This document shows, in pieces, positions 7,487-34,842 of a stretch of DNA of 64,000 nt; within the stretch, counting starts at the first letter, position 1, and each line of letters begins with the position of its first letter. Source of the DNA: Thermosphaera sp. (GTDB lineage Archaea > Thermoproteota > Thermoprotei_A > Sulfolobales > Desulfurococcaceae); assembly GCA_038827615.1 (NCBI GenBank), contig JAWBNK010000001.1, positions 122,290 through 186,289 of the forward strand, in the 5' to 3' direction. The notes under the pieces were generated by a model. It had not been told where the DNA came from, ran no database searches, and saw nothing but the letters and a program-made list of their open reading frames with translations. The translations under genes were made by a program, and so were the position numbers.

Positions 7487-7643
7487 GGGCCCGTAGCTCA
7501 GCCAGGCAGAGCGGCGGATGCTGGGGTATAGCCCCGGCGGCCGATGCTCCAGATCCATGCTATGGGTCATACGACCTTCACGGGATGAGATAGATCTGGA
7601 GGGAGTGACCCGTAGGTCAGGGGTTCGAATCCCCTCGGGCCCA
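7487..7643 (+). tRNA. Intron-containing tRNA, most likely tRNA-Trp(CCA) with two introns (proposed exons 7487-7517, 7546-7552, 7608-7643)
   Basis: Acceptor GGGCCCG/CGGGCCC, D-arm GCTC-AGCCAGGCA-GAGC, T-arm AGGGG-TTCGAAT-CCCCT, discriminator A. The gene is 157 nt versus 74 nt expected. Removing 7518-7545 and 7553-7607 gives anticodon stem GCGGG/CCCGT and loop CTCCAGA. The exon CTCCAG+ATC pairs with intron GATCTGGAG (9 bp), as in canonical 37/38 introns. Confidence 0.65.
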
Positions 7644-7659
7644 CTACGATGTTTAAAAA

Positions 7660-9562: not shown

Positions 9563-9584
9563 AGATTGACCCCTTCTCTACTTG

Positions 9585-10556: not shown

Positions 10557-10558
10557 GG

Positions 10559-11569: not shown

Positions 11570-11575
11570 CCTCTA

Positions 11576-12073: not shown

Positions 12074-12181
12074 AGAAAATCCACCATATAGAAATATATC
12101 CCGCCCCCTTAATATAGTGGGTGACTCCCGGGTAATATGCAGTGTTTAATTATTCTATGCTTGAGGGGAACTGTTTTCCCC

Positions 12182-13153: not shown

Positions 13154-13174
13154 GATAACCTAGCACTCCTGTAG

Positions 13175-17966: not shown

Positions 17967-17979
17967 GTCTCAACACCTC

Positions 17980-19068
17980 TTACCTGATTGGCGCCAATAT
18001 GTTGATTATCTTGTCCTTCGCCTTGGCAAAGGCTTCAGCCGGCGATGAAGCCTTGTCGAATGTGACTTGTTTCACGGGCTCTCCGCCGGGCTCCTCGAGA
18101 CCCTCGCCATTGTACGCGTAGATGTTCACTATGAGGTTGTTAATTATCTTCGACATTGCAACGGCTCTCTCATAAGTCTTCTTGATGTAATCCCTGCTTA
18201 ATCCAGGTGATACGTTGAACTCGACAGGCCCCCTGGAGAAGGCTACTACAATGCTCCTCACATCCCACTGCGGCATGTACCTGCTCCTCTTAGCGCCGAA
18301 TATCAATCCGTCCACAAGGGCTGTTAAAGCGTCGATGGCTGCCTCAACTCTTTTGACTCTTTGACCCTCCAGCTCTGGATCCAGGGTTTCGGAGTAGTTG
18401 AGCCTCGCTATGTCGGAGATTACTAGCTGTGTCGTCAGAGTATACAGCGCGCTCCCGCTTTCCACGTAGAATAGCGCCTGCTCGCCTCTCTTTGCCTGGG
18501 GCGTGTACCTCACGTGGAGCTGCGGTATTACGACAGCCCCGCCTTCTTGAACCGCGTCCAAGGATGGGAGGAGGTAGGAGAATCTGATGGCAGACGTGCG
18601 CTTTAACTGCTTGTCCGTGTACAAGAATCCTCCGACATCAGCTACAACGCTTGATTTAACAAAGAGCTTCTCCAACTCCCCGGGTTGTTCGATCTCCTTC
18701 AACTTGTTTTTAACCTCCTCGGGTTTCACGCCGAGCTTTCCCGCTATCTCGCTGTAGTAGCTCTGTATGATGTTGTCGTCCGAGAACTTCATGAAGTATC
18801 CTTCCAAATCCATTTTAGTCACTGGAAGCCCTCTCTGGTTTGCAATATGGGCGAGTACCTGCTGATATGCGTGGGCGAGGGATTCGCCGCTGACGGCGGG
18901 AACGTAGATCACCGAGTATCCCTTCTCGGTTTGAACGATGATAGGTGCTTTCCTGTGCCTCGTATAGTTTCCGACGCTCTCAGCCATGTTCAAGGCTTCA
19001 GCGTTGACGAGTATTCTCGCGGACACGCTTAAGTTGTAGATGATCGAGGGATGGACCATTCCAATCAC
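17980..19068 (-). CDS. cas7: Cas7 / Csa2 backbone subunit
   Basis: Csa2 signature LVNAEALNMAESVGNYTRHRK and VSGESLAHAYQQ. Confidence 0.9.
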   Translation of the reverse strand: MIGMVHPSIIYNLSVSARILVNAEALNMAESVGNYTRHRKAPIIVQTEKGYSVIYVPAVSGESLAHAYQQVLAHIANQRGLPVTKMDLEGYFMKFSDDNIIQSYYSEIAGKLGVKPEEVKNKLKEIEQPGELEKLFVKSSVVADVGGFLYTDKQLKRTSAIRFSYLLPSLDAVQEGGAVVIPQLHVRYTPQAKRGEQALFYVESGSALYTLTTQLVISDIARLNYSETLDPELEGQRVKRVEAAIDALTALVDGLIFGAKRSRYMPQWDVRSIVVAFSRGPVEFNVSPGLSRDYIKKTYERAVAMSKIINNLIVNIYAYNGEGLEEPGGEPVKQVTFDKASSPAEAFAKAKDKIINILAPIR

Positions 19069-19424
19069 CCTTGCCCGCCCGACTCCTCCCTGGCGATCAT
19101 GGAGGGTATTCGCGCATATGCCCTCATGGAGAGCTCCCTGGCCAGCTTAACGATCTCGGTCCGAGGCCTGTTCTGGAGCATGCTGGCAAGCATGTTTACA
19201 GCCCTCTCCAGCTCGGCATCCGTGATCGATGGGCACATCACTACTCTGCCTTCACCCAGGTCGACGGAGCCCGGCCCCTCCCTGCAGAGTGCTAAGTATG
19301 CTCTTATGGCATCTCTGATTGCCTCCATTATGGAGATCTCGTCGAGGGCGTTGCCCAGTCTGTCAATATAGCTGTAGTCTTTCTGGGCGCCTAGGAAGGC
19401 GAGTATTTCTATTATCTGATTCAT
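19065..19424 (-). CDS. csa5: Csa5 small subunit (Cas11a)
   Basis: 119-aa helical protein, first gene of the csa5-cas7-cas5 order typical of type I-A; 4-nt overlap with cas7. Confidence 0.6.
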   Translation of the reverse strand: MNQIIEILAFLGAQKDYSYIDRLGNALDEISIMEAIRDAIRAYLALCREGPGSVDLGEGRVVMCPSITDAELERAVNMLASMLQNRPRTEIVKLARELSMRAYARIPSMIAREESGGQG

Positions 19425-19550
19425 ACCTTACACCAATATATTATTTAGACCCGAAGGGATATATAAATTTTTCCTATCAAGAAATATTTCTTACCCCGAA
19501 ACGCAATTATTCATGAAACGATCATTAATTATGTTTCAAAACACGAAACA
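19425..19550 (-). promoter_or_regulatory. Promoter/operator region of the type I-A interference operon
   Basis: AT-rich; minus-strand TATA-like AAATTTATATAT and TAAATAATATATT upstream of the csa5 ATG; palindrome GAAATATTTC; four (C/T)GAAAC(G/A) motifs. Confidence 0.5.
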
Positions 19551-20186
19551 TTAGAGCAGATCATAGACCTCCTTGCATAAGAGGTAGACATCGCCTTCCC
19601 CACACACTATTCTGTTTGCCATCAGCTTCCGCAACCTCTTGAATACCGTAGACTTCGGTATCCCGGCTTGCCTAGCGAGCTCTGCAAGGCTTGCCCTCCC
19701 AAGCGTTCTCAGGCTCAAAACTATGTCCCTATCCCTATCATCCATGCTTAAAAGCTGTTTCAAAAGGCTTAGCTTCGGCTCCCAGGAGTGCTCGAAAGCC
19801 TCTCCCTCAACGGCTATCTGGATCCTCGACGACTCGTCCTCGCCGAGCATTAGCGCCGCCACCAGGGCTGAGACCACGAGGATTCTAGGCCCCCCGGTGA
19901 GATAGAGGTCCACGGGCCCTTTCTGGGAGGCATTCTTCAGTATCGTGTAAACGGCTCTTATGATGCCGCTGGCTTCAAGGCCCTCCAGGGTGCAATCGAT
20001 CCTCATTGAGATGCAGATAGCTTTCAAGGCGTGGAAGGCTTTAGCAACCCTCTCCTCACCCTCTCTCGTCTTAAGCGATAGTAGCCTGACCTGGCTGTAC
20101 CTCCTAGCCGTTATCCTCCTCACGACAAAGTCTATGTCAAAGCCGAAGGTTGCCACGAGGGTTCTAGCCTCTACCTCCTCCGACAT
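19551..20186 (-). CDS. csa3: Csa3-type CARF + wHTH transcriptional regulator
   Basis: N-terminal CARF-like LVATFGFDIDFVVR; C-terminal wHTH ASLAELARQAGIPKSTVFKRLRKLMANRIV. Confidence 0.75.
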   Translation of the reverse strand: MSEEVEARTLVATFGFDIDFVVRRITARRYSQVRLLSLKTREGEERVAKAFHALKAICISMRIDCTLEGLEASGIIRAVYTILKNASQKGPVDLYLTGGPRILVVSALVAALMLGEDESSRIQIAVEGEAFEHSWEPKLSLLKQLLSMDDRDRDIVLSLRTLGRASLAELARQAGIPKSTVFKRLRKLMANRIVCGEGDVYLLCKEVYDLL

Positions 20187-20240
20187 CTCCCTAACCCAGA
20201 GATATATATTTGTATGAAGGAGTTATTAACAGTGAAGGAT

Positions 20241-20864
20241 ATGCGGGTTTTCCTTTTCCCGCTCGGATTCCATGAAGATCCCGCGATACGGGTGCTAGTG
20301 GAGTTCAAGAGTAATGTTGAAGACGAGGCACACGCTTTCACTTGCCAACCCCTGTCTCCCGGGTCGAAACGCGCCTTCGAGTCCCTCAAGGCCTTCTCAT
20401 CTTCTCAAAGGTTTCCAGACCCCGCACTGGTGCTGGTCAACTGCTCCAGCTTCTATGAGAGTTTCAAAGTGGTCAGAGGGATTGTGGAGCCCAGGGACGC
20501 CTTGTTCATAGTGGAAGTCGGCATGGGGCCGAGGATCATAAGCCACGCGATTATCCAAGCCTTGATCTACTCGAACAAGGATTTCATGATCCACTACGAG
20601 CCTGAGACGGGCGTCGACTCCCCCATAACAGTTGATCACAGATTTCTCAAAATATTGCGTGAAGGCTTGTCTTCCTCCGAGCTGAGGCTTCTCGAGGCCC
20701 TCTCCCATGGAGAAGCCTCCATGCCTGAGCTAGCCGGGGTCCTAGGGGTCTCGGAGAAGACCGTAAGGAATATTGTATCTCGCCTCAGAGCCAAAGGATT
20801 GATCGCTAAGATAGGTAAGAGGGAGAGGGTTGTTTTGACCGAGGCTGGGAGGGCTCTCGTCTAG
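20241..20864 (+). CDS. csa3: Second Csa3-like CARF + wHTH regulator, divergent from the first
   Basis: MRVFLFPLGFHEDPAIRVL (CARF N-terminus); wHTH ASMPELAGVLGVSEKTVRNIVSRLRAKGLI; ORF track start at 20214 is 9 codons upstream. Confidence 0.7.
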   Translation: MRVFLFPLGFHEDPAIRVLVEFKSNVEDEAHAFTCQPLSPGSKRAFESLKAFSSSQRFPDPALVLVNCSSFYESFKVVRGIVEPRDALFIVEVGMGPRIISHAIIQALIYSNKDFMIHYEPETGVDSPITVDHRFLKILREGLSSSELRLLEALSHGEASMPELAGVLGVSEKTVRNIVSRLRAKGLIAKIGKRERVVLTEAGRALV

Positions 20865-21379
20865 CCGTAGGGGCAGAACCTCCTGTACCAGCACCACTTA
20901 CACCTCGAGTGCTCCGGGATGGTTGGAGGAGGCCTGTCCCTCGCCTCCTGCACTTTAACTCTTCTGAAGTGTTCTTTTGCCCCGTCCATTGCATCGTCGG
21001 ATAACTCCAGCTCCCTTAGGGAGCCCGCAATCTCCAGGGCCATGGTTCTTAATCCTTTGATCCTTCTCGAAGCTATGTAAGATGTAACGGCTAGTTGAGC
21101 CACGTATCTGTGAAGGCTTCTCGTGGGAAACTTCTTCCTCTCAATGATCGTGAGGTGTTTTCCCCGCTTAACGATTTCATCAACCAACGTCACCATTCCG
21201 TTTGAGGAGAGCTTCAACTGCCCCTTCCCATCTGAGACTTTTACGTTTCTGCCCTCCTTCATGGAGTCGGTGGCGGGTTCGACCACGTTATACTTAAGTC
21301 TTATCCAAGCGATGATGGGACAGTAGATGAAGTCTTTAACCATGGAGGGGGAAACCGACTGCTCGGGCTGGTAGGGCAT
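20861..21379 (-). CDS. cas4: Cas4 RecB-like Fe-S nuclease
   Basis: N-terminal Cys (FIYCPIIAW), ExK-type core (TIIERKK), C-terminal CKWCWYRRFC cluster. Confidence 0.85.
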   Translation of the reverse strand: MPYQPEQSVSPSMVKDFIYCPIIAWIRLKYNVVEPATDSMKEGRNVKVSDGKGQLKLSSNGMVTLVDEIVKRGKHLTIIERKKFPTRSLHRYVAQLAVTSYIASRRIKGLRTMALEIAGSLRELELSDDAMDGAKEHFRRVKVQEARDRPPPTIPEHSRCKWCWYRRFCPYG

Positions 21380-21666
21380 TATATCACTGTGTAAGTTTTG
21401 GTCGAGGATGTTATGTCGCTCAGAGGCTTTCCCCAGTGCTTCATGTACTTTACAGAGTACTCGAGCAACGGTATTAGGTGTATTACGTCCGAGTCGCAGG
21501 CGACGTACTTGGGTAGGATTCTCTCAACGTCCTTCACTGCCGTGGGCAGGAGCCTACCTATGAAGACGCTTTTCTGCACTCTCGAGAGCCCTCTGTCCAA
21601 CAGGTAGTTGCTTAGCTTCAGCCTCACGTTATTGTCTGATATGTCGTAGACTATCAACACTATCAT
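21379..21666 (-). CDS. cas2: Cas2
   Basis: MIVLIVYDISDNNVRLKLSNYLLDRGLSRVQKSVFIG ferredoxin-fold signature; start taken at the internal Met (ORF track 21687). Confidence 0.9.
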   Translation of the reverse strand: MIVLIVYDISDNNVRLKLSNYLLDRGLSRVQKSVFIGRLLPTAVKDVERILPKYVACDSDVIHLIPLLEYSVKYMKHWGKPLSDITSSTKTYTVI

Positions 21667-21670
21667 TTCA

Positions 21671-22660
21671 TCACCAGTTGTGGACATATGCCCTGAACAC
21701 AGCCTCGCCTCTCACGGCGGCGGCGAGGTTGAACGCGCTCCTCCTCAGCACTTGCCTGAGGGTTGCCGGGGCCTCGCCCAGCCACTTCGTCTTGGTCTCG
21801 TCGAGGGTTGCGTTGAATGAGGTTATAAGCTTCACCCTGGACTCATAGTCTAGGAGGCCGTTGACTACCCTGGGGATCCAGCCGTGCCTCAGTATTGACA
21901 GGAGGGTCATGTCCGCTGTGAACCTGAACTGCTCTATGTAGTCGAAGACTAGTGTTGGATTCCCTGATCTATCGGCGTGGAGGTATCCTAGGTAGGGGTC
22001 GAGCCCTGCGAGGACGAGGGCTTTCCACGACTCCGAGTAGAGTATTCCGTACAGATAGTTTAGCGACATGTTTACGGGGTCCTGAGCGTCCTGGTCCCTG
22101 CTGTTGAACCCGAGGCTTTTGGGAACTAGCTTCGCATATGAGGACCAGTATGTTCTCGCCGCTTCTGCTTCTATCTCGACTATCTTGGCCTTAGGGTTGT
22201 CGGCGCCCAGGAGTGCTGCATCTATTCTTGAGGCGTGTCTGGCTACTTCTTCTGCAGCGTTTTTAAGCTCTTGGTCTCTCGTGTAAGTGTAGTACCTCTT
22301 GAGTAAGCCGGCTTGATTCAATATCTTGGCTTTCACTATTTCTGCAGCTATGTCGAGGCTTTTCCCCTTTACCGCTGTCTCGTACTGTTTTCTCCTCGTC
22401 TCTACTGTTTTATTGATGTATACTGGGTAGACTCTCCCCGATGGGTATCCCTTGCTGTCGAGGAAGACTAGGTCTATTCCGTGGTCGAGTATTTTTCTAA
22501 CTGTTTTACTCGATATCGAGACTCCTGATGAGGCTATTATGACTTGCTCGACCTCGTGGATTGGTATGTTGTTTTTCTCGCCGTTTTTCTTCTCCACTAC
22601 TATTTGGTTCCTCCTCGTCCTCAATCTAGCGCCGTATTCGGCTACTATTAGCTGCTTCAT
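21671..22660 (-). CDS. cas1: Cas1 integrase
   Basis: MKQLIVAEYGARLRTRRNQIVV N-terminus; conserved LNYLYGILYSE and YLHADRSGNPTLVFDYIEQFR. ATG at 22658-22660 shares 1 nt with the csa1 stop (TGATG). Confidence 0.9.
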   Translation of the reverse strand: MKQLIVAEYGARLRTRRNQIVVEKKNGEKNNIPIHEVEQVIIASSGVSISSKTVRKILDHGIDLVFLDSKGYPSGRVYPVYINKTVETRRKQYETAVKGKSLDIAAEIVKAKILNQAGLLKRYYTYTRDQELKNAAEEVARHASRIDAALLGADNPKAKIVEIEAEAARTYWSSYAKLVPKSLGFNSRDQDAQDPVNMSLNYLYGILYSESWKALVLAGLDPYLGYLHADRSGNPTLVFDYIEQFRFTADMTLLSILRHGWIPRVVNGLLDYESRVKLITSFNATLDETKTKWLGEAPATLRQVLRRSAFNLAAAVRGEAVFRAYVHNW

Positions 22661-23502
22661 CACGTGCACACCGTTGCGAGCGGGCATGACTCGGGGCATT
22701 TCACGTCTCTCGGCGGCTCTCTGTCTTCGAGGAGCATGTCTATTATCTCGTCTCTTTCCTCTATGAACCATCTTCTCAGGTCGTTTGAGATGTATACTGG
22801 TTTGAGCGTTGTTTTTAAACCGCTGGTGTTTGAGACGTATATTAGTATTCCGTAGTCGTGGGGCGTCTCAGTGTACGCTTTTAGCGCGAGGGCGTATCCG
22901 GCGATGGTTAGCTTGTGGAAGTCTCTGGGCTGCCCGTACTTCATGTCGACGATTACGTTTTCAAAGAGTATGTCTACGGAGAGGTTTTGTGAAAGCCCTA
23001 ATGGGGTTCCGTCGACCTTGTACTCGGTCATGGTTGGTGCCTGTGCGGAGCCGTTTACTACTTGCTCGTACTGCGCCTCCCCGAGTGTGGTGAGCAGGGT
23101 AGTCTTGTATGCCTCCTCAACCGTTTTCGCGTGCGCTGGGTCTGGGTTTAAGATCCGCCACTTGTTCTGGAGGATAATATAAGCTGTTGTCGGGGGAATG
23201 TCGTTGGCGAGTGCTCTAGCGGCCTCCCTTAAGGCGAGGCTGACCGCGTCGTGAATAAACCTCCCTGTGAGCAACGGGTCACTCGCCTCTGCTCTCGCGC
23301 CAACTTTCCTCCTCAACCAGACATCTCTTCTCGTCGGGCAATACTTGGAGGCTACTTCGCTGACTCCGAGGCCGAGGTAGGCCCTAGGCTTTAGAGGCGG
23401 CCGATCCCAGCTCCACCCCCTCAGCTCAGCGTCAACCGGGTCATTCCTAGCCCACTCGTAGAGCCTCCTAATGCTCCTCAACACATGCCTCCTCGCTATC
23501 AT
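22660..23502 (-). CDS. csa1: Csa1 (Cas4-like nuclease of type I-A adaptation modules)
   Basis: N-terminal Cys (KYCPTRRD), VIVDMKYG nuclease core, C-terminal CPESCPLATVC cluster; first gene of csa1-cas1-cas2-cas4. Confidence 0.75.
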   Translation of the reverse strand: MIARRHVLRSIRRLYEWARNDPVDAELRGWSWDRPPLKPRAYLGLGVSEVASKYCPTRRDVWLRRKVGARAEASDPLLTGRFIHDAVSLALREAARALANDIPPTTAYIILQNKWRILNPDPAHAKTVEEAYKTTLLTTLGEAQYEQVVNGSAQAPTMTEYKVDGTPLGLSQNLSVDILFENVIVDMKYGQPRDFHKLTIAGYALALKAYTETPHDYGILIYVSNTSGLKTTLKPVYISNDLRRWFIEERDEIIDMLLEDREPPRDVKCPESCPLATVCT

Positions 23503-23840: not shown

Positions 23841-26661
23841 GAAACAATAGAGAAAAATTGAAAGCATTTCGCCGTCTACGACGCCTATTTCAACAGCTGT
23901 TGTGAAACAATAGAGAAAAATTGAAAGTTATACAAAACACCTGACCCCAGCTTGAAGCATATATTAACCTGAAACAATAGAGAAAAATTGAAAGGCCAAA
24001 CACGCTGACAAGCAATATGCCCGCGGTGTTCACTTGCGAAACAATAGAGAAAAATTGAAAGTAGACCGTGAGGAGATCTATAGCAGGACAGACAGGTATA
24101 TGAAACAATAGAGAAAAATTGAAAGCTTATATATTTTGTGGTTACAGTGAGTGAGGATCCTAAGGAAACAATAGAGAAAAATTGAAAGTTCATCTTGCTG
24201 TTGCTGTTCGGTTGGCGACCCGACGATGTGGAAACAATAGAGAAAAATTGAAAGCATCGCACGTATATTTCAAGATTTTAGACGACGCATCATAGGAAAC
24301 AATAGAGAAAAATTGAAAGTAGGGATTGTCCCGCCTTTGTCTTCATAATACTGATACAGGAAACAATAGAGAAAAATTGAAAGTGAAAAACGAAATAGAG
24401 GCTCCAGGATTCTACCTTGTAGACGAAACAATAGAGAAAAATTGAAAGTCTTTATCAAAAACATTTTTGATGAAGGTGCCAGGCCTTGGAAACAATAGAG
24501 AAAAATTGAAAGGCCTGGGGACGGTGTCAATACTGGCCCCGGTTTTTTCGTGGGAAACAATAGAGAAAAATTGAAAGAAGTGGAAAGGGGAACCACGGCA
24601 CGCCTTACAACGGCACGGGAAACAATAGAGAAAAATTGAAAGTTTCAACGCGTAGAATATTGGCACAAGTATGAACATTAACGAAACAATAGAGAAAAAT
24701 TGAAAGAGCTATAGTTTACAAAAACCCTTAAATTAACCTTTTTGTATGAAACAATAGAGAAAAATTGAAAGTGTCATCGAGTTCTATGTACAATATCACG
24801 CCTGACCTCAGAAACAATAGAGAAAAATTGAAAGATCTTTTTTTCCATCTTTACCCCCATATAACATACTGTAAAGAAACAATAGAGAAAAATTGAAAGG
24901 TAGCGACCCATCGAGAATTGAAATACTCTTATTTTGAAGAAACAATAGAGAAAAATTGAAAGCTAGCCCCGCTTGGTTAGAATTGTAACCCGAAGTGTCG
25001 AGAAACAATAGAGAAAAATTGAAAGTCTTATAGCTGTATACAATTGCCGAGAGCCGTGTGGCAAGCGAAACAATAGAGAAAAATTGAAAGTCTATTCTGT
25101 TTATATCATACACGTTTACATAAACTTCTTCGAAACAATAGAGAAAAATTGAAAGTGATCATTTTAAGATAGTATCTCAGCGCGTCGCGTATTATCTGAA
25201 ACAATAGAGAAAAATTGAAAGCGCCACACCGCACCGCACCGCGGGACCGCAAGGCTTATGAAACAATAGAGAAAAATTGAAAGTTAAAGATGTATAAAGA
25301 TGTATATGTTGCAAGCGTTGGAGTCGGAAACAATAGAGAAAAATTGAAAGAAATAACTCTTTTGATCAAAAAAATGTTCAAGGAAAAGGTGAAACAATAG
25401 AGAAAAATTGAAAGTATTGAACTCCTCGTGGCTTGGAAATATATTGTGCTTAAGGGAAACAATAGAGAAAAATTGAAAGTCTAGTGCCCTAACCCGCCTG
25501 ATCACATTTTCAATCTTTTGAAACAATAGAGAAAAATTGAAAGCTATTAAATAATTGTGGTGAGACAGATGTCTGGCTCGTATATGGAAACAATAGAGAA
25601 AAATTGAAAGTTACTTCTTCAGTTAGTTGTGGTGAATGCATGAAGTGCGCGAAACAATAGAGAAAAATTGAAAGTTAAGAACATATATAAAGCGAGCATT
25701 ACGAAGCCAGCGATCAAGAAACAATAGAGAAAAATTGAAAGGCTGTTTTAAATGCTCATATTCTCTCATCATTAGATCTCTTATTTTGAAACAATAGAGA
25801 AAAATTGAAAGTGAATCATTGATCTTCGCGGCCAGGCCGTACTCCTCCAGCTTGAAACAATAGAGAAAAATTGAAAGATAGGGCTCTACTAGAGCAGGGC
25901 TATAACGTGCTGTTTATGAAACAATAGAGAAAAATTGAAAGCGCTGATATTCCGCAACACCTGCGCAGTTCTTCTAATAAATGAAACAATAGAGAAAAAT
26001 TGAAAGAGACGCTGCCTGGGTCTCGTATAAGCCCCCGTACTGGGCGAGAAACAATAGAGAAAAATTGAAAGTTTTACATATATAATAGATGGGGCGAATC
26101 CCCTATGGCCAGAACCGAAACAATAGAGAAAAATTGAAAGCTTGTTTCAGCCCACTGCCTCAGTGCTTCACCATACTGGAAGAAACAATAGAGAAAAATT
26201 GAAAGACACTTGTGCTGTGAACCACCGTAACTTCTCCTGAGATAAGGAAACAATAGAGAAAAATTGAAAGTCTTTTATTACAGTGAATTTTACGCTCTCC
26301 CCGTATTGGGTTGAAACAATAGAGAAAAATTGAAAGCGATGGAGCGTGAAGGATTCAAGAAAATGCTTGAGGCATGAAACAATAGAGAAAAATTGAAAGT
26401 GAATGATGAATGTATAAACGTTATTAAAATAGACATCGAGAAACAATAGAGAAAAATTGAAAGCTGTTTCATCCATGCAGTTTCACCTTTTACAATATTA
26501 TAAGGAAAGAATAGAGAAAAATTGAAAGAATAAGCAGTATTATATAGTTTTACATTGTTTTTTACGTAAACGGAAACAATAGAGAAAAATTGAAAGCGGC
26601 ATATGCCCGTACTGGAAAATCACGGCAAAGGGGCGAGGAAACAATAGAGAAAAATTGAAAG
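23841..26661 (+). CRISPR. CRISPR array: 44 copies of the 24-nt repeat GAAACAATAGAGAAAAATTGAAAG, 43 spacers of 38-46 nt
   Basis: Repeats located individually (periods 62-70 nt). The repeat ends in ATTGAAAG, the 8-nt 5' handle known from crenarchaeal type I-A/III crRNAs, so transcription is on the + strand from the cas-proximal leader. The only variant repeat (C5>G, 26505-26528) is third from the distal end. Confidence 0.97.
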
Positions 26662-26833
26662 TTAAGGGGTTGGATACTTTTTCATATGAGTATGTATAGT
26701 GTGTTTTGGGTTGATTCGGGTGTTTTTAAGGAGGTAGTGGTGGGGGTTGTTTGGGGGATGATTGTGGTTTTGTTGTTTTGAGAGGTGTATTTTTAACCCT
26801 GCTCTTCCATAGGTTTTTGTGAAGGTGTGTTGT

Positions 26834-28873
26834 ATGGGTAAGGCGTCATCGCAGGCACCTCTTCTCGCGGCGCTCTTAATCCTTGCAGCTCCTCTCCTGT
26901 CCTTCGCCTGGCTTGGAGGGGTTGCTGGAGAGGCTCCGGCGGGCATTAGAGTAGTGTTGGATGACCACTTGTTTGCGACATACACGTTGGAGTCAAACCT
27001 TGTCTACGCCGGCGGCTCCTACCTGACCAGCCTCTTGAACATAACCCATGGATCCTTCATCGAGGGAAACATATACTTCGTGAGGATCAATGCTTCGACG
27101 GGGGAGCAGTCCAGGATCGTGTTAACCGACAACCTCGGGATAGACCACTTCACCCTCCCAGTCGGGGACAAGATAGCCCTGGCATACTCCAGGTTCGTCA
27201 GCACGGCTCAGAGGAGGGATTTGAACCTCACCATAATAGACCCTGCTGGAAACGAGGTGCTAGCCGATATACCGATAGAAGCCACTGCGAACCACGATGA
27301 ATACCCAGTCCTAGCCTACAACCCGAGGACCGGCACGATAGCAGTAGCATACTTCATAAGCCTGGGAACCACTAGAACCATAGCCGTCAAGCTGTTAGAC
27401 GCCTCAACCCTATCCATCACAGCATCATACCAGTTCCCCAACGCCACTCTAGACTACTCGAGGATAAGCTTCAATATCGCCCCGCTCGGAGCCGGCTTCA
27501 TACTGGTCTACCCCAACGAAACCGCAACCCCTGGAGAGGTCGACACGGTCGCAGTATACGTCGACGGAGCGGGAGCTCAGCCGATAACCGTAGACCCCAC
27601 CCCCGGCGCCAACGAAACCTTCGGCGAAGTCATCACAATGAGAGCCCCGAACTACGTTAGAACCGACACCCTATACTCGCCCTTCACCCCCCTGGTAATC
27701 GACGAGAACACAGTAGTCTTCACAGGATTCACATACAACTCCAACGGCACGAGAAGCGTCTTCACCCTCCAAGCAAAAATGGAGAACGGTCAACCAGTCA
27801 TATCCCAAGTCTTCCACGGCCTCGGACACTACCCATCAATAGCCCAGGGCTCCTCAACCATAGCGCTAGCCTACTCAGCCCCAGGCCCCGGCGGCTACGA
27901 CGCAGTGGTGAAAATACTGGACAAGCAAACCCTCCAGGAGATAGCGTGGCTAAACCTCAGCGCGATCGCCGGGACAGCTCCCCTCCCAGAGGGATTCGTT
28001 AAAACAGCCTACAGCCCCTCCGGATACTATCTAGTAGCCTGGAGCGTCCTCGGACCCGACTCAACCTACACTATAGTAGCAGCAGGGGTTAAGGAGTCGC
28101 CTCTCGCCTTCACGGGAACGGCAAGCATACCGACAACAGCCGGATTCAACGCCACGGCCCTGAGGATAGGAGTTGATGATTCGAACGGCTTCGCAATACT
28201 ATACAGAGAGTACAAGATCGCTACGAACGAGTCAGACACCTACCTGTACATGGGTAAGATCGGAGTAGACATACCCCCGATAACCGAGACCACAACAGTC
28301 ACGGAGACAACCACTACCACGCACACAACCACAGTCACCGCTACCGAGACCACTACAGTACCCACGACGACAACATACACTACAACCGAAACAACAACCA
28401 CGACCTACACTACGACTACAACAGCGACCGTGACCACCACGGAGACAACCACCGTGACCGAGACATCCACCACAACTACTACGGCCACCGTCACGGAAAC
28501 CACGACAATCCCGACAACCACCACCGTGACAGTCACCGAGACAACAACTTCAGTCATACCTACAACAACTACCGTGACAGAGACAGCTACTCAAGTAGTC
28601 ACGACAACCCAGACCACAGTCATACCCACGACCACAACGCTCACTCAAACACAAACCTCAACAGTAACCTTCACAATTACTCAGACAGCCACCATAACCA
28701 CAGAGATCCAAACTACGAGAACAATCACTGAGACGGAGACCACGACACAAACCACTACGAAGACGGAAACCCAGACCACGAGCATACTCGAGACGTCGTC
28801 GGGCGTGGCAGCAGCCGCAGCCGCACTACTCGCAGGAGTATTCGTGGGATGGCTCCTGAGGCGCTCGAGATAG
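26834..28873 (+). CDS. Secreted, C-terminally anchored surface protein with a Thr-rich stalk
   Basis: Signal-peptide-like MGKASSQAPLLAALLILAAPLLSFA; many N-x-S/T sequons; about 180-aa Thr/Glu/Val low-complexity region; C-terminal TM AAAALLAGVFVGWLL followed by RRSR. Confidence 0.7.
   Translation: MGKASSQAPLLAALLILAAPLLSFAWLGGVAGEAPAGIRVVLDDHLFATYTLESNLVYAGGSYLTSLLNITHGSFIEGNIYFVRINASTGEQSRIVLTDNLGIDHFTLPVGDKIALAYSRFVSTAQRRDLNLTIIDPAGNEVLADIPIEATANHDEYPVLAYNPRTGTIAVAYFISLGTTRTIAVKLLDASTLSITASYQFPNATLDYSRISFNIAPLGAGFILVYPNETATPGEVDTVAVYVDGAGAQPITVDPTPGANETFGEVITMRAPNYVRTDTLYSPFTPLVIDENTVVFTGFTYNSNGTRSVFTLQAKMENGQPVISQVFHGLGHYPSIAQGSSTIALAYSAPGPGGYDAVVKILDKQTLQEIAWLNLSAIAGTAPLPEGFVKTAYSPSGYYLVAWSVLGPDSTYTIVAAGVKESPLAFTGTASIPTTAGFNATALRIGVDDSNGFAILYREYKIATNESDTYLYMGKIGVDIPPITETTTVTETTTTTHTTTVTATETTTVPTTTTYTTTETTTTTYTTTTTATVTTTETTTVTETSTTTTTATVTETTTIPTTTTVTVTETTTSVIPTTTTVTETATQVVTTTQTTVIPTTTTLTQTQTSTVTFTITQTATITTEIQTTRTITETETTTQTTTKTETQTTSILETSSGVAAAAAALLAGVFVGWLLRRSR
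28262..28800 (+). repeat. Low-complexity Thr-codon-rich tract (ACC/ACA/ACG runs) encoding the TTTVTETTT-type stalk
   Basis: Direct reading of sequence and translation. Confidence 0.85.
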
Positions 28874-28883: not shown

Positions 28884-29248
28884 AAAAACCCTCCTCCACC
28901 ATTAGAGCACTTATTGCGGAACAGCTCAATGCCTTCTCAACCATCCACAATATCGAGCACCAAACAGAATGGCCCTCCTGCTTGAAAAGCTCGGTGGCAA
29001 ATAAGTGCTGACGCCTCTCTCCTCCCCCGCACGACCGGCTTAAGGAACAAGACGAGGCACAGCTCCCGGGGTGCACGACCCCGCAGGATACGATTTTTAT
29101 ACATGGTAGCGCACGTTGGAGGCAACAGAGGGGAGTAAACAGGGGTGCTCTCATGCTTGAGACTACGGTAATAATCATCCTTTCAGTACTGTCAATAATT
29201 CTCTTGTATTTCCACTTGCAACTAAGGTAACGTGTTGAGGTGAAAGCC

Positions 29249-29677
29249 ATGGAACTGGCTCACGAGATCTTGAGGCGGAGGAAGCGCGAAATCAGACGCG
29301 ACGCTATCGCTAGATGTCAGCACACGAATCTGGGAAGGATAGGGGAGCATCTCTCTCCACTCGCTATCTTCCTAAACTACGGAGTCGACTTAAAGGACCT
29401 CAGGTTCATTGGATCACCGATCGACTACGTAGCCTTCAAAGGCTACTCCGGCGGAAAAACAGAAGAGATCATATTCATTGAAGTGAAGAGCGGAAGTTCG
29501 GGGGATCTAGAGGAAAAGCAGAAGCAAGTTAAGGAGGCTGTGGAGTCTTGTAGGATAGAGTGGCTGGCAATACACTTACCAACCGAGATAGAGAATTTGA
29601 AGCGAGCTCCGTCCCAGAGGCAAGAAAACACGGTTCTAAAATACCTGTGCGTCTCCACCAGATGCTTGATTAGCTGA
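29249..29677 (+). CDS. Small PD-(D/E)XK nuclease, Holliday-junction-resolvase-related family
   Basis: Core GSPIDYVAF...EEIIFIEVKSGSS (D...ExK). SD GAGGTGA at 29237-29243 favours the ATG at 29249 (ORF track GTG 29240). Confidence 0.6.
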   Translation: MELAHEILRRRKREIRRDAIARCQHTNLGRIGEHLSPLAIFLNYGVDLKDLRFIGSPIDYVAFKGYSGGKTEEIIFIEVKSGSSGDLEEKQKQVKEAVESCRIEWLAIHLPTEIENLKRAPSQRQENTVLKYLCVSTRCLIS

Positions 29678-29773: not shown

Positions 29774-29849
29774 GGGCCCGTCGTCTAGCTTGGTTTAGGA
29801 CGCCGCCCTGACACGGCGGAGGTCCGGGGTTCAAGTCCCCGCGGGCCCA
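29774..29849 (+). tRNA. tRNA-Val(GAC)
   Basis: GGGCCCG-TC-GTCT..GGAC-G-CCGCC-CTGACAC-GGCGG-AGGTC-CGGGG-TTCAAGT-CCCCG-CGGGCCC-A folds as a canonical cloverleaf; no intron and no encoded CCA. Confidence 0.92.
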
Positions 29850-30017: not shown

Positions 30018-31217
30018 TTATTCTTGCAGGTGTGTTGTGATCTCGTCTATGTAGTTTTTAACGAGCTGGTGGTGGCGGGCTCTCTCGCTGAAGTATTTGA
30101 CCGCCTGGTCGAGCTCACCCCTGTACCTCCGCACGTCCCTCAGCGTGCCGACGGGGACGATCCTTTTCAAATCCCCCTTAACCCTCCTCTCGCGTTCGAG
30201 AACCGCCTTATCCGCCTCGTCCGCGGGGAGGTCGAACAGCAGCTGCCGCAGCGTATAGCCATCCACCGCGGCCTCGTCGAGCCCGTAGAGGCGTGTTCCC
30301 GAGAGCTCCTCCGCGGCCCTGAGCGCGTTCAGCAGTATCGAGCGGGCGGGGGCGGTTAGGAAGCCCAGCCTGCTGTACCCCGTGGTCTTGGCGGCCCTCA
30401 TGCTGGGCATGTCGCTTATCCACCTGTACATTAATCTAAAAGCCTCATAATACATTAGATCGCTGCCAGCCAGGTAGTTGCCGAGCTGGTGCTTCACCAG
30501 GGTGCAGTGCCAGCAGCCATACCTCGCCTTGACCGCGCCCTCCCCGTATAGCTTGAACAGCGGCTTAATATCGATATCCCCGTTCCAGTTCCGCAGGTAG
30601 TTCCACACGTCCTGCTCGCTCCAATCCCTTATCGGGAAGGCTTTAGCCGCGGCCCCGTGGTTCATTAAGTAGTATGAGGAGCATCTGCCAGCGCTCAGGG
30701 GGCAGAACCCCGAGCTAACGCTGCTCAGCCGCCTGGCCCTCGCGGAGGACTCCTCATCCCTGTGGCCCAGCAGTACTACAGAGCCCTCCCGCTCAACTAT
30801 CTTCAAGGCGGGCTTCCTCTTCAACAGGTAAACGCACCACCTGAAGCTGAACGAGGGAGCGGGGTAGCCCCTGATGAACAGCCTCCAGTAGAACGTGTCC
30901 TCGGGCGGGGGCGCTACTATTTTAAACCCCGCGTTCACGCCCAGGGCCCGCAGCCTCTCCACATAGTTTTCCATGAACCTCCTAGTCCACTCCCTCATCG
31001 GCGGGATTTCGCTCAGAGTGTCGCTGTTCACAAGCATTATATTGGCATCGGCCGCGCCCATCCTCTCCCGCAGCCAGTCATATAATAGGAGAGAAACTGT
31101 TGTCGAATCCTTACCGCCAGAGTAGGCGACGAACACCCTCCTAGACCGCCTAAGCACTTCGTCGAAAACCCTGAACGACCCAGCCGCCAACAACACCCTC
31201 AAAACCCACCACTCCAA
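30018..31217 (-). CDS. DndC-like PP-loop ATP pyrophosphatase (PAPS-reductase superfamily)
   Basis: SGGKDS PP-loop; FIRGYPAPSFSFRWC; HRDEESSARA; FPIRDWSEQDVWNYL; RYGCWHCT (DndC-type GCWxCT); TTG start. Confidence 0.75.
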   Translation of the reverse strand: MEWWVLRVLLAAGSFRVFDEVLRRSRRVFVAYSGGKDSTTVSLLLYDWLRERMGAADANIMLVNSDTLSEIPPMREWTRRFMENYVERLRALGVNAGFKIVAPPPEDTFYWRLFIRGYPAPSFSFRWCVYLLKRKPALKIVEREGSVVLLGHRDEESSARARRLSSVSSGFCPLSAGRCSSYYLMNHGAAAKAFPIRDWSEQDVWNYLRNWNGDIDIKPLFKLYGEGAVKARYGCWHCTLVKHQLGNYLAGSDLMYYEAFRLMYRWISDMPSMRAAKTTGYSRLGFLTAPARSILLNALRAAEELSGTRLYGLDEAAVDGYTLRQLLFDLPADEADKAVLERERRVKGDLKRIVPVGTLRDVRRYRGELDQAVKYFSERARHHQLVKNYIDEITTHLQE

Positions 31218-31291
31218 TCAATACCTATGGTTGAAGAGCACCTGCTCTTCAATAAATTCCAGTTTATATATAAAAGCTGAGCATATATAGA
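31218..31291. promoter_or_regulatory. Shared divergent promoter spacer between the DndC-like gene and the nuclease-helicase pair
   Basis: AT-rich with TTTATATATAAAAG and GCATATATAG TATA-like boxes directly upstream of the + strand gene. Confidence 0.45.
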
Positions 31292-33265
31292 TTGAGGGAA
31301 TACGTCTTGCCCCACTCTTATCTCGGCGAACTTATAGACCGTGAATTCAAAAACAAAACTTCTCCCCAAGATTACCAGAAGATTGAGATGGCTAGGGAGG
31401 TTCTTCGTGAGACTCTGACCAAAACAGCTCACGTCCCAGTTGTCACGAGCGTGGCAATAGGCGCGGCCCACTGCTCTTTCAAGGCGAAATTAATTGAGGC
31501 GATAGGAGTTATTAAAGACCAATACGTATTCAAGGATAAAATAATGGGAGAAGGATCAAACCTCCATAAGATATTAGCGATAGCTTCTCTTCTGTACTTC
31601 AACAAAGGTCTTTCGATAACGCAAAGCATTAGAGAGGCAATAAATGATGTGAAACAACATCTAACTTCTAGAAGTGGTTTAAACGAGGAGAGGCTGACTA
31701 ATGATGCAGTAAAATTGTTTGAAACTTTAATAAAAAATCTTCAAATTTTTGAGAAAAACTTAGATGTTAGGGAAGGTCAACTAAAACCGGTAGTTGAGCA
31801 AACACTCATAGATTTCGATGTACATCTTAGGGGAATCCCGGATCTCATCTTGGAAGATAGGAAGGCTCGGAAAGCGGTGGTCGTAGAGTGGAAAACGGGA
31901 GGTAGCGACACTCCTTCAAATTATGAAAGGGCCCAGGTGATTGCCTACGCCATCTTGGAGGCAAGGAGATTGGGATATTCTATTGAGGAACTTGAAAGAG
32001 TAATTATTGGTACCCTAGACGATACGGGGCGTGTTAAAGAATATTCAATTCTACCGGTCATCATTAGGGCTACTACCAAGGGCGAATTGTATCCTCATCC
32101 GGCTTTGGCACCTCAAGATAAGGTTAAGGAGAGATTCGAAGAGTTTAAAAATCTGCTTCGGAAAATCCTTATAGAGGCTGAACATCTCACCGTCCTTTTG
32201 ACTCATCAAAAGAGTTTAACAGGAGTGAACCCAGATGTTCTAAAAATCCCCCTTCCAAATAATCCAGACATTAAAGTCAACATCTTGAGATATACGCCTC
32301 CAATCCTTCCTAGAGGGACACCTAAAACCCAGGATTCTTGGCCCTGCGTAAGCAAGAAGAAAAAACCGATTTGCGAGTATATAGAGCCGTGTAAGTTCTA
32401 CTTTGGCAGGTTTGGGGAGAAAGAGGATTATGAAAGAATTCTATGGGATCTCAGATTCGAGGCCCTGAATTATAGGGAAAAGATGCTCTCAGTATACAGA
32501 GGTCTCCACGATTTCTTTAAATTCTATGTTTTCTTTAAAAACTTTGATGTAGACAAAATAATCGGTGAATTGAGTGATTCGGACGGATCTAAATGTATGG
32601 GAATCATAGTTGATTTGGCCCGACCATACGAGGAGAAAATCTCTTCCAAATATGGGAAAAGACGATTATGCAAAGATATTATCATACTGAGAGACAAACA
32701 AGAGTTATTTAATGGAAGGGTGGATATTGTGGAAAAGATAGAGATAGGTGAAGATGGAGAAATAGTTTATGTGAAGAGAAGGATAGCCAAATATGAAAAA
32801 GATAGTGAGCATGGATTTATGCCCAGAGTTGTGAGAGAAGGATCTCCAATACTGATATCCCTCATGGACTCATGGAGTCCCTTATTAAGCACGAGCATTT
32901 TCGGGAGGGTGGATAATGTAAGGTACATAGGAGACAACATCGAGTATCAGATAGGTTTTCCCAGTAGACTCCTAGAGTTGCAGAAGAATCTTCTCAAGCA
33001 CTATGTTGAGAGAAGCCTCGAAGGCAGATTTTTAATGGCAGAGATTAACGTTGACCTAACCAAAGCCGATCTAGAGACTATAGATGCTCTTCAAAGATCA
33101 TTGAAAAGTAAAAGTAGAGAATTACCGACAGAAGAGGCCAAATTGCATTCTATGGAAGATCGCGTTCTCGAGAAACAAAAGAGAAAGCTACGAAGTGAGT
33201 ATGGAGATATCGATGCTACTTTCGATAGCATTTTAAGAAAAGTATTATCCAGGAAGAAGGGGTGA
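31292..33265 (+). CDS. Cas4/AddB/Dna2-type Fe-S PD-(D/E)XK nuclease domain fused to an uncharacterised C-terminal region
   Basis: GIPDLILED...AVVVEWKTGG...YERAQVIAYAIL (D, ExK, QxxxY); one upstream Cys (AAHCSF) and a downstream CVSKKKKPICEYIEPC (C-x9-C-x5-C); about 290 aa of C-terminal sequence without a recognised motif. Confidence 0.65.
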   Translation: MREYVLPHSYLGELIDREFKNKTSPQDYQKIEMAREVLRETLTKTAHVPVVTSVAIGAAHCSFKAKLIEAIGVIKDQYVFKDKIMGEGSNLHKILAIASLLYFNKGLSITQSIREAINDVKQHLTSRSGLNEERLTNDAVKLFETLIKNLQIFEKNLDVREGQLKPVVEQTLIDFDVHLRGIPDLILEDRKARKAVVVEWKTGGSDTPSNYERAQVIAYAILEARRLGYSIEELERVIIGTLDDTGRVKEYSILPVIIRATTKGELYPHPALAPQDKVKERFEEFKNLLRKILIEAEHLTVLLTHQKSLTGVNPDVLKIPLPNNPDIKVNILRYTPPILPRGTPKTQDSWPCVSKKKKPICEYIEPCKFYFGRFGEKEDYERILWDLRFEALNYREKMLSVYRGLHDFFKFYVFFKNFDVDKIIGELSDSDGSKCMGIIVDLARPYEEKISSKYGKRRLCKDIIILRDKQELFNGRVDIVEKIEIGEDGEIVYVKRRIAKYEKDSEHGFMPRVVREGSPILISLMDSWSPLLSTSIFGRVDNVRYIGDNIEYQIGFPSRLLELQKNLLKHYVERSLEGRFLMAEINVDLTKADLETIDALQRSLKSKSRELPTEEAKLHSMEDRVLEKQKRKLRSEYGDIDATFDSILRKVLSRKKG

Positions 33266-33270
33266 CAGAT

Positions 33271-34842
33271 ATGGTTTTCAACGTGGAAAAGATAGTTGAT
33301 TTCGAGCTAGAACAACCTTTCTCGTCTCCCTCGACGGAAGGGATTGAAAACATATTAGGTTTCATCACCGACAAAATCAAAAGTGATAACATAGGAGTAG
33401 TTCAGGGCCCACCCGGCACTAGAAAAACCTTTTCTATATTTACAAGTATCGAAAAAGTTTTTGATAACCTCGACGAAAACGAATTAATAATCTACGTTGC
33501 ACCCACTAATGCGCTTGTTGCCCAGGGGTTGCAATACGCTGTCAGAGCTTTACGTTGGAAAGGCCTCACCCAGAGAGAGGTGAAAAGCGAGATTCTGAGG
33601 TCGGTAAGGGTTTATGGATCACAATTTGAATTACCGGGAACTTATAAAAAACTCAGAGATAAAGTGGATGCAGAAACGAGGATTGTGCTGACTACACCGT
33701 ATCAGATACCTTCGATTGAGGAGAAGGACTTCTTCCACATAATGGTGGATGAGGCAAGTAGAATGAAATTACATGAAGCCTTCATGGAAATTAGAAGAAA
33801 AATTGTGGAAAAAATATCAAACGGGGAAGGGCTTGAAGGTTCAATGATCGTGGTAGGCGATCCCATGCAAGCGATCGTTCTTCCAGAACACTATAGGGAG
33901 ATTGAAAAACTTAGAAAGGAGAGATTACTCCTCGAAAGCCTTCTTGAGGGGCTTTTAACAATTAGCGGAGTAGATACACGTGAGTTAGAGAGCTCGGATT
34001 TAACTAGGGAAGCTCTTCAACGAATTAGAGGAAAATGGTTCGAGTTCATTGAAGTGACTTTTAGATTGCCACAACCGACGGAGAGACCGATTAGTATGGG
34101 CTTTTACGATGGAAAACTTACGGCAAAATTCTCTTTTGAAGAGAGATTAAAAGAGTTAGAAATATCCCCGGGCAACTCTCCATTAAAATTTGGAGATGAA
34201 ACGCTCGATAAGTTAAGTGAGAGCGTATTTGAGTGCCTGAGCACTCACATTCCCTTACTGGTCATAGAGCCAACTGAGAGTGATTGGATGGATGAAGAGT
34301 ACGGTATTCTTAACGAGCCTCATAGAGCAAAAATAGCAGGGGCTCTCAGCGTGGTACTGAGTTCGTACGGTTTTAGGACCACCGTTGTAACAGCTTACAA
34401 GGACCAGGCTTTTCACATTAAGATGTTCACTGAGGAAAAATACCGAAACTATTTAAACAATATCAAGGAGAGAGTCGACTTCATAAACGTTCACAGGATA
34501 TTGGGCGGAGAAAATCAAGCAATAGTCGCTGTACTGGGGAAGGAGTATGCAACACGGCATGAAGATAGACAAACAGTTTACTTCCAAGAGCCGGAACTCC
34601 TTAACGTTCAGCTAAGCAGGCATAAGGCGTTCTTGGCCATAGTCGGAGATCTAAGGAGGTTGTACAGGAGTGCCACGTCGTTAGATCAACGTGAGCGAAC
34701 AAAGAGGTATAGACCAATAATTGAGACCGCAAGAGAGATTTTAGAATTAACGAACGTTGAAGAGAATGAAATCGAGAGAGCTAAACGCGGTAGGGAAAAA
34801 TACGAAGGAGATGAAGGTCTCTACATAAGATGGAAAATATGA
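33271..34842 (+). CDS. SF1B helicase, Upf1/Dna2-like
   Basis: Walker A GPPGTRKT, Walker B IMVDEASRM, VVGDPMQ (motif III), TAYKDQ, VHRILGGENQAIV (motif V), LNVQLSRHKAFLAIVG (motif VI). SD GGGGTGA overlaps the upstream stop codon (ORF track GTG start at 33262). Confidence 0.8.
   Translation: MVFNVEKIVDFELEQPFSSPSTEGIENILGFITDKIKSDNIGVVQGPPGTRKTFSIFTSIEKVFDNLDENELIIYVAPTNALVAQGLQYAVRALRWKGLTQREVKSEILRSVRVYGSQFELPGTYKKLRDKVDAETRIVLTTPYQIPSIEEKDFFHIMVDEASRMKLHEAFMEIRRKIVEKISNGEGLEGSMIVVGDPMQAIVLPEHYREIEKLRKERLLLESLLEGLLTISGVDTRELESSDLTREALQRIRGKWFEFIEVTFRLPQPTERPISMGFYDGKLTAKFSFEERLKELEISPGNSPLKFGDETLDKLSESVFECLSTHIPLLVIEPTESDWMDEEYGILNEPHRAKIAGALSVVLSSYGFRTTVVTAYKDQAFHIKMFTEEKYRNYLNNIKERVDFINVHRILGGENQAIVAVLGKEYATRHEDRQTVYFQEPELLNVQLSRHKAFLAIVGDLRRLYRSATSLDQRERTKRYRPIIETAREILELTNVEENEIERAKRGREKYEGDEGLYIRWKI

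Follow-up and report, generated by a model that had tools for sequence, protein, structure and literature searches.

A DndC-linked gene pair from archaea encoding a predicted two-subunit Dna2-like nuclease-helicase

The gene pair and the divergent DndC-like gene

The stretch of DNA described here, denoted as the window, comprises 64,000 nucleotides (nt) of a Thermosphaera sp. genome (GenBank assembly GCA_038827615.1, contig JAWBNK010000001.1, positions 122,290 to 186,289). It harbors two adjacent open reading frames (ORFs), A and B, predicted to encode an iron-sulfur (Fe-S) PD-(D/E)XK nuclease with a large C-terminal part and a superfamily 1 (SF1) helicase core, respectively, and a divergently oriented gene for a DndC-like protein (Table 1). 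A first-pass annotation, made from the sequence alone, had interpreted the pair as a Dna2 split into two translationally coupled genes with a role in defense rather than replication. The finding is real and this interpretation is supported, with the pair now seen as the two-subunit Dna2-like effector of a DndC-linked system of three genes that is specific to archaea.

Table 1. Features of the window that concern the module, and nearby elements (aa, amino acids; positions are those of the window)
Feature	Position (nt)	Strand	Remarks
ORF A	31292..33265	+	657 aa, TTG start
Subunit A, helical N-terminal region followed by RecB/Cas4-type Fe-S PD-(D/E)XK core	31769-32071 (core)	+	core at residues ~160-260
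Subunit A, codons of the Cys ligands	31472, 32342, 32372, 32390	+	
Subunit A, beta-rich domain and long C-terminal helices	32600-33256	+	residues 437-655, from predicted model
ORF B, subunit B (Upf1-like SF1 helicase core)	33262..34842	+	526 aa, GTG start; GTGA overlap with ORF A; domains 1A and 2A only, short C-terminal extension
Subunit B, Walker A motif	33406-33429	+	
Intergenic region, short, AT-rich, divergent	31218..31291	.	TATA-like box TTTATATATAAAAG at 31263-31276, read from sequence
DndC-like gene	30018..31217	-	predicted PP-loop ATP pyrophosphatase, PAPS-reductase fold; divergent from the pair
tRNA-Val gene	29774-29849		adjoins the module
CRISPR array	23841-26661		44 repeats, repeat GAAACAATAGAGAAAAATTGAAAG; 4.6 kb from the module
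Type I-A CRISPR-Cas locus	8087-23502	-	Cas3 HD, Cas3 helicase, Csa2/Cas7, Cas1; followed by the array

Both ORFs lie where they had been placed before and are tightly coupled whichever start codons hold. The same applies to every other locus, with the A-B junction ranging from a 26-nt overlap to a 25-nt gap. Homologue alignments favor later starts, namely TTG 31307 for ORF A (652 aa, as in P0001) and ATG 33271 for ORF B (523 aa, as in P0026), in which case the 4-nt GTGA overlap is probably replaced by a 5-nt spacer with a purine-rich stretch. A 98% identical locus of a Thermosphaera metagenome-assembled genome shows the same genes, with N-termini called shorter. The TATA-like box is located ~20-30 nt ahead of the candidate TTG starts, and the intergenic region is presumed to serve as a bidirectional promoter for leaderless or short-leader mRNAs. 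The low G+C content reported for the pair was confirmed, with 0.407 (ORF A) and 0.423 (ORF B) vs 0.492 for the window; at third codon positions (GC3), the values of 0.41 and 0.43 are the lowest among the 51 long ORFs of the window.

The nuclease core of subunit A, the product of ORF A, matches PF12705 (PDDEXK_1) over residues 59-243 (3e-9) and Cas4 models weakly. The residues D174, D184, (E/D)199-W-K201, and Q215-x3-Y219 are conserved in 25 homologues. As claimed before, these catalytic motifs are enclosed by four cysteines, C61, C351, C361, and C367 (C-x289-C-x9-C-x5-C); among the 25 homologues C61, C361, and C367 are invariant, and C351 is found in all, with the alignment shifted in a few. 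One Cys before and three after the active site constitute the “iron staple” layout of AddB, Cas4, and Dna2, and the arrangement in subunit A can be read as such a staple with unusual spacing. The C-terminal 290 residues are conserved too (R388, E396, R496, E502, P557-S558, D588-L589-T590).

The protein comprises more than a nuclease, as had been proposed. An AlphaFold2 model (predicted local distance difference test (pLDDT) 83, predicted template modeling (TM) score 0.88) displays a beta-rich domain (residues 437-585) and long helices (590-655). Compared with the PDB by Foldseek, this model yielded matches with E<=0.001 only to mouse Dna2 (5eax, 9e-6; 5eaw, 7e-5), with alignments of 613-631 columns for 657 residues, a probability of 1.00, and TM-scores of only 0.34-0.37. 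Partial matches to SETX (135-136 columns) follow, which would fall on the beta-rich C-terminal region. The beta-rich domain and the long helices are likely the equivalent of the barrel and stalk of Dna2; this equivalence is unproven, since the TM-scores are low, as expected for a multi-domain match. Sequence and profile searches of the PDB with subunit A matched no chain, and no Dna2 Pfam domain was detected in the pair.

Subunit B (~520 aa) consists of just the two RecA-like lobes, and its homologues are all 450-570 aa in size. The SF1 motifs noticed earlier are invariant in 31 homologues: GPPGTxKT (49-56), DEAS (163-166), GDPxQA (199-204), R268, and NVQLSRH (448-454). The protein matches AAA_11/AAA_12. 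A PDB profile search with the helicase family retrieved Upf1/NAM7 and Sen1 (~2e-14) as well as SETX, Aquarius, and IGHMBP2 (1e-6 to 1e-8); RecD reached only an E-value of ~4e-4, and UvrD was not matched. By sequence, the helicase is therefore placed nearer to Upf1/Sen1 than to Dna2. For the model (pLDDT 88), Foldseek lists Dna2 first (3e-14), with Sen1, Upf1, IGHMBP2, and nsp13 close behind, so that Dna2 is the top PDB match of both gene products in the fold comparison envisaged by the first-pass annotation. Since subunit B comprises only the two lobes, the accessory domains usual in Upf1-like helicases appear to be supplied by subunit A.

The third gene is predicted to encode a DNA sulfur-modification “writer”, a pyrophosphatase-loop (PP-loop) enzyme with the fold of 3'-phosphoadenosine-5'-phosphosulfate (PAPS) reductases. 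Its product matches PF01507 (2e-13) and the PADLOC model of DndC (1e-33), scores 103 bits with TIGR03183 (DndC; cut-off 290.4 bits), and shows weak domain matches to SspD (1e-4) and BrxP (3e-12). The SGGKDS PP-loop and Cys127/171/178/234/237 are kept in the orthologues from nine loci, and the protein carries a C-terminal region of its own. The true start may be located ~8-10 codons inside the ORF. In Sulfurisphaera ohwakuensis (L003), two PAPS-reductase paralogues flank the pair, a short divergent copy (260 aa, 7004-7786) that shares 23% identity with the protein of the window, and the orthologue (398 aa, 11624-12820).

With 0.79, the DndC-like gene shows the highest GC3 among the 51 window ORFs. 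Its GC3 exceeds that of the nuclease and helicase genes in 30/30 complete loci (L001-L167 and the window; mean +0.105), and hosts richer in G+C show the biggest gaps (+0.37 for the window and +0.24 to +0.29 for six further loci). Since all three window proteins share their nearest relative, Zestosphaera, the gap is not accounted for by separate donors. It may be caused by differing constraints on expression, the writer being protective and the effector dangerous. A separate insertion of the low-G+C pair beside a resident DndC-like gene is unsupported, given the lack of flanking repeats, the common nearest relative, and the systematic nature of the gap.

Linkage, distribution, and neighborhoods

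Among the Thermoproteota and Thermoplasmatota, 12 of 13 distinct loci combine the nuclease, helicase, and DndC-like genes, and the contig of the 13th breaks off. A DndC-like orthologue (36-59% identical) adjoins the pair in every related locus with enough flank. The three-gene loci include those of Zestosphaera, Sulfurisphaera ohwakuensis, Thermoplasma acidophilum, Thermoplasmatales AK, Vulcanisaeta, Pyrobaculum sp. WP30, and several metagenome contigs. A metagenome scan seeded with the DndC-like protein distinguished an orthologous clade (>=240 bits) from generic DndC homologues (<=172 bits). Nuclease and/or helicase genes are present in 28 of the 39 orthologous-clade loci, most others being short-flanked, and in none of the 41 generic ones. 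Across 30 loci, the pairwise identities of the three proteins correlate with r = 0.95, 0.82, and 0.89, values reached by none of 2000 permutations. Based on the shared loci, the bimodal metagenome scan, and the identity correlations, the three genes form one co-evolving unit. The DndC-like gene, which the first-pass annotation had correctly described as a divergent neighbor of the pair, was thereby understated, as it is a third component.

Seven gene arrangements occur among the loci, with adjacency retained. The helicase gene precedes the nuclease gene in 4 of 30 loci, and the two are separate genes in all 30 complete ones. No fused nuclease-helicase is found in the nuclease family, which amounts to 105 clusters among 1.84 billion representatives, and no member exceeds ~800 aa. 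Because the two genes are never fused and occur in both orders, the pair is best read as a Dna2-like enzyme that stably consists of two subunits and not as a Dna2 that broke apart recently. Of the notion of a Dna2 split in two, the Dna2-like architecture distributed over two genes persists, and the recent fission has to be given up. A recently split or pseudogenised Dna2 is rejected not only by the absence of fused relatives and the two gene orders, but also by intact catalytic motifs and the lack of any sequence-level link to Dna2.

DndC-like orthologues without the pair were observed at L102 (3887-5080) and L121 (2220-3437), and also in L105, L108, and L120. Their neighbors comprise Eco57I/MmeI-type enzymes, a DUF1156 methylase, and AAA_5 or ATPase_2 proteins, which points to orphan writers or alternative effectors. 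In L113-L116 and L131, the helicase gene (~240 bits) is preceded by an ORF of ~540 aa that reaches only 23-34 bits with the nuclease profile and, judged by this score, would encode a strongly diverged or different partner nuclease.

The family is rare and patchy and belongs to archaea of the Thermoproteota and Thermoplasmatota. When 185,579 species genomes were scanned by pattern, five carriers were retrieved as a lower bound, all of them archaeal. No nuclease orthologues were found in 2.9 million viral contigs, a plasmid collection, and PHROGs. A viral or plasmid origin is rejected, with IMG/VR, BFVD, PHROGs, and PLSDB devoid of orthologues. Viral matches to the DndC-like protein are only 22-33% identical, reflecting generic similarity.

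Most loci examined border restriction-modification (R-M) genes, toxin-like genes, integrases, or CRISPR, and the flanking genes vary in most compared loci. Neighbors across the loci include integrases, R-M genes of the MmeI/Eco57I type, HNH_2, Mrr, HipA, PIN, HEPN/MNT (nucleotidyltransferase), and insertion sequence (IS) elements. In L005 and L007, a tyrosine integrase adjoins the module genes, together with stretches of small ORFs as they are typically seen in integrated elements, and L006 contains an IS240 transposase. Neither an integrase nor att-like repeats were found in the window, the near-identical Thermosphaera locus, and the Zestosphaera locus. The defense role put forward by the first-pass annotation is supported by this distribution: orthologues are rare and patchy instead of occupying a conserved locus, mostly reside in accessory or defense contexts, and conserve both the cysteines and the D/ExK motif.

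Additional genes accompany the module in several lineages. Thermoplasmata loci harbor a protein of ~400 aa between the helicase and the DndC-like gene (L005 11486-12685, L010 9615-10826) that lacks a Pfam or PDB match, and in two of these loci an HNH_2 endonuclease is encoded just past it (L005 13967-14899, L007 13958-14734); these two may represent fourth and fifth components. Pyrobaculum and Vulcanisaeta modules are flanked by genes for a conserved AAA_22-like protein of ~530-590 aa, a ~375-400-aa protein of unknown fold, and an S-adenosylmethionine (SAM) methyltransferase with a small partner, which suggests larger variants of the system. Of those extras, the Sulfurisphaera locus has just the AAA_22-like protein. 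The extra genes of this Pyrobaculum/Vulcanisaeta/Sulfurisphaera set are located at L017 3687-6394 and 11055-12705, L016 629-2260, 5961-7755, and 9034-10233, and L003 3531-6382. Neither the accessory ATPase nor the ~375/400-aa neighbors yielded a match when searched against the PDB.

Known systems, proposed function, and alternatives

In architecture, the pair is closest to Dna2, an enzyme of eukaryotes and some archaea that degrades threaded single strands. The parts follow each other as in Dna2: the PD-(D/E)XK nuclease with its Fe-S staple comes first, then the beta-rich domain and the long helices (read as barrel/stalk), and last a Upf1-like SF1B 1A/2A motor. Mouse Dna2 (5EAX/5EAW/5EAN) is the best structural match in the PDB for both gene products. 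The pair nevertheless lacks the single chain, the sequence orthology, and the universal distribution of Dna2. It consists of two unfused polypeptides in either gene order, and subunit A shows a C...C-x9-C-x5-C spacing and neither detectable sequence similarity to Dna2 nor a Dna2 Pfam domain. Moreover, Dna2 is a universal replication or repair factor, whereas the pair is rare, accessory, and tied to a DndC-like gene.

In logic, the module appears closest to TdpABC, a phosphorothioation system found in extreme thermophiles (An et al., 2025, Nat Chem Biol 21:1160), with a different effector. The compact three-gene logic of one DndC-type enzyme, an ATP-driven DNA motor, and a nuclease would be common to both, as is the occurrence in thermophiles. 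The gene content (a DndC-like gene plus two genes, no DndD/E or SspB/C) fits TdpABC as well, a comparison made by description, not by sequence. TdpA is reportedly a hexameric ring encircling duplex DNA that, together with the nuclease TdpB, restricts unmodified DNA. The motors differ, hexameric rings not being expected of a Upf1-like SF1 motor, and so do the hosts, as Tdp is reported from bacteria and the clade described here is archaeal. PDB profile searches with all three families retrieved no Tdp-named chain. PAPS-reductase matches on Deinococcus and Paenibacillus plasmids were considered as possible Tdp loci and rejected, since they lie in methylase-rich plasmid islands without a nuclease-helicase pair. 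As stated in PMC12914056 with reference to An et al. (2025), phosphorothioate synthesis by the bacterial TdpC does not depend on a partner.

With Dnd, Ssp, and BREX type 4, the module has in common a PP-loop enzyme of the DndC/SspD/BrxP family with conserved cysteines as modification catalyst and the defense context. Unlike in DndABCDE, the DndC-like protein stays below the DndC equivalog cut-off and the partners DndD, an ATP-binding cassette ATPase, and DndE are absent; unlike in SspABCD and BREX type 4, only weak SspD/BrxP domain matches are obtained, and SspB (DUF4007) and the other partners are missing. Specifically, DndB/D/E were not found in the window or nine related loci, and SspB/C, BrxC/PglZ/BrxL, DndFGH, Pbe (PbeABCD), and SspE genes were not found in the window and related neighborhoods.

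AddAB, AdnAB, RecBCD, and Cas4 resemble the pair in their RecB-family nuclease, one Cys before and three after the active site, and an SF1 motor partner. The motor is Upf1-like here vs UvrD/Rep-like SF1A in AddAB, AdnAB, and RecBCD, and a second nuclease-helicase chain is not present. Subunit A has three times the size of Cas4 (657 vs ~200 aa) and scores 25.5 bits with TIGR00372 (cut-off 65 bits), over residues 169-243 only. A Cas4 or CRISPR accessory gene is rejected, the score being below the Cas4 cut-off and the linkage being to helicase and DndC-like genes, not to cas genes. Nhi and Mokosh (MkoA/MkoC) likewise combine a Upf1-like SF1 motor with a nuclease in immunity. They are single large proteins without a modification enzyme, and the Mokosh nuclease belongs to the phospholipase D type. 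PADLOC matches of subunit B to MkoA/MkoC are weak and partial (residues 374-492, the generic helicase lobe 2A), and no Nhi model of PADLOC matched the pair, the presence of such a model in the library not being confirmed. Of the resemblance to Nhi and AddAB seen by the first-pass annotation, the association of a nuclease with an SF1 motor remains; the separate chains, the Upf1-like instead of UvrD-like motor, and the partial MkoA/MkoC matches set the pair apart. A prior description of the module was not found in the searchable literature, which is not proof of absence.

It is proposed, with a probability of roughly 0.55, that the three genes constitute an immune module resembling R-M systems, in which self DNA receives a mark from the DndC-like enzyme and DNA lacking it is degraded by the Dna2-like pair. 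The PP-loop/Fe-S enzyme would activate DNA with ATP and insert sulfur to mark the host DNA, the mark most likely being a backbone phosphorothioate. Subunits A and B would assemble into a two-chain Dna2 equivalent, with B docking on the helices and the beta-rich domain of A. The SF1B motor would then move in 5'->3' direction on single-stranded DNA and feed the strand into the tunnel-type Fe-S nuclease of subunit A. Targets may be DNAs whose ends are accessible, or the single-stranded intermediates of viral and plasmid replication. The enzyme would stall on marked self DNA or be repelled by it. The module is supported by the catalytic and cluster residues, the Dna2-like folds, the linkage and co-evolution of the genes, their rare archaeal distribution, and the defense-island or integrated-element contexts of most loci. 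The enzymes are predicted to be active from the invariance of their nuclease, Fe-S, helicase, and PP-loop residues. TdpABC offers a precedent, as a single DndC-type enzyme reportedly makes phosphorothioate there and is paired with an ATP-driven translocase and a nuclease.

Several observations weigh against this proposal. No cysteine desulfurase, DndD/E, or SspB/C is encoded nearby, which leaves the sulfur supply and target selection unaccounted for. The orthologous DndC-like gene occurs without the pair in at least two loci (L102, L121). The Zestosphaera module lies amid housekeeping genes (topoisomerase VI, His-tRNA synthetase, reverse gyrase). Many loci add conserved genes (the ~400-aa protein without Pfam match, HNH_2, the AAA_22-like ATPase, the SAM methyltransferase) that possibly are the real effectors or specificity factors. 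By analogy to SspE, the mark could also activate the pair rather than block it.

In a different division of labor, nuclease and helicase would be part of the modification machinery, opening, nicking, or scanning DNA in the role of DndD/DndE or SspB/SspC so that the DndC-like enzyme gains access to the backbone, and restriction, if any, would be left to variable neighbors. In Dnd and Ssp, according to two sources (PMC12914056; PMC10853773), DndC/SspD works with an ATPase and a nick-related partner, and those partners are absent here. Some loci carry other nucleases next to the module, namely HNH_2 (L005 and L007) and an Mrr-like domain (L009), and a tight three-gene co-evolution would suit a single enzyme complex. 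These extra nucleases are, however, not conserved between loci, and the DndC-like gene does without the pair in L102 and L121. The partner independence reported for TdpC (PMC12914056) disagrees with a need for such machinery. Subunit A furthermore retains the full RecB/Cas4 active site of the processive type, and both halves resemble Dna2, a degrader of threaded strands, so that this alternative is considered rather unlikely.

The integrase and small-ORF runs of L005 and L007 and the IS240 transposase of L006 could indicate that the module serves mobile elements, with the DndC-like enzyme shielding the DNA of an integrated element or plasmid against restriction by the host and the pair acting in element replication or recombination or attacking competitors. 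Phages and plasmids commonly carry PAPS-reductase genes that stand alone, and the composition of the pair in the window is atypical. The missing nuclease orthologues in the viral and plasmid collections, the generic nature of the viral DndC-like matches, and the three loci free of integrase and att-like repeats render this improbable. Still less probable is a housekeeping substitute of Dna2 that processes Okazaki flaps or resects breaks beside an unrelated or metabolic DndC-like neighbor. Dna2 is indeed the best fold match for both halves and the neighbors in Zestosphaera are housekeeping genes, but the family is very rare and patchy, its flanks differ in most compared loci, its linkage and co-evolution with the DndC-like gene are strict, and its codon composition is unlike that of the host.

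If the three genes act as the proposed immune module, Dnd, Ssp, Tdp, and BREX type 4 would be joined by a further type of DndC-based immunity. This type is restricted to archaea of thermophilic and acidophilic habit, in which, to our knowledge, few defense systems beyond CRISPR and classical R-M are known. The Dna2 architecture would then operate as two separable subunits in a conflict system and provide a tractable model for the cooperation of an Fe-S nuclease, a beta-rich domain with long helices, and an SF1B motor, as well as a candidate origin of Dna2. The further-reaching idea that this is an apparently undescribed, archaea-specific sulfur-modification immunity with an unfused Dna2 effector, and that such modules gave rise to Dna2 by fusion and loss of the modification partner, is a speculative one and unlikely. 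The predictions are directly testable, as Thermoplasma acidophilum, Sulfurisphaera ohwakuensis, and Pyrobaculum sp. WP30 are cultivable carriers.

Further features of the window

The tRNA-Val gene and the CRISPR array cited by the first-pass annotation as neighbors are confirmed, as is the DndC-like gene. The nuclease gene is paired with the helicase gene and not with cas1, which is located 8.5 kb away, in a separate locus. A gene with SPFH/Band-7 and SHOCT domains (10559-11569) is found ~1.6 kb downstream of the Cas3 HD gene, past the identified cas genes. A tRNA match of Rfam at 7487-7643 (+) (157 nt, 47 bits), missed by ARAGORN, probably represents an archaeal tRNA with an intron. Directly before tRNA-Val, an endonuclease related to archaeal Holliday-junction resolvase is encoded (29240-29677 (+); PF10107, 2e-34), a gene not conserved beside the module in other loci. 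An ORF at 26819-28873 (+), located between the CRISPR array and the module, encodes a protein of 684 aa that looks like a surface glycoprotein: its N-terminus is signal-like, a very long low-complexity region is rich in Thr, and a hydrophobic anchor is found at the C-terminus.

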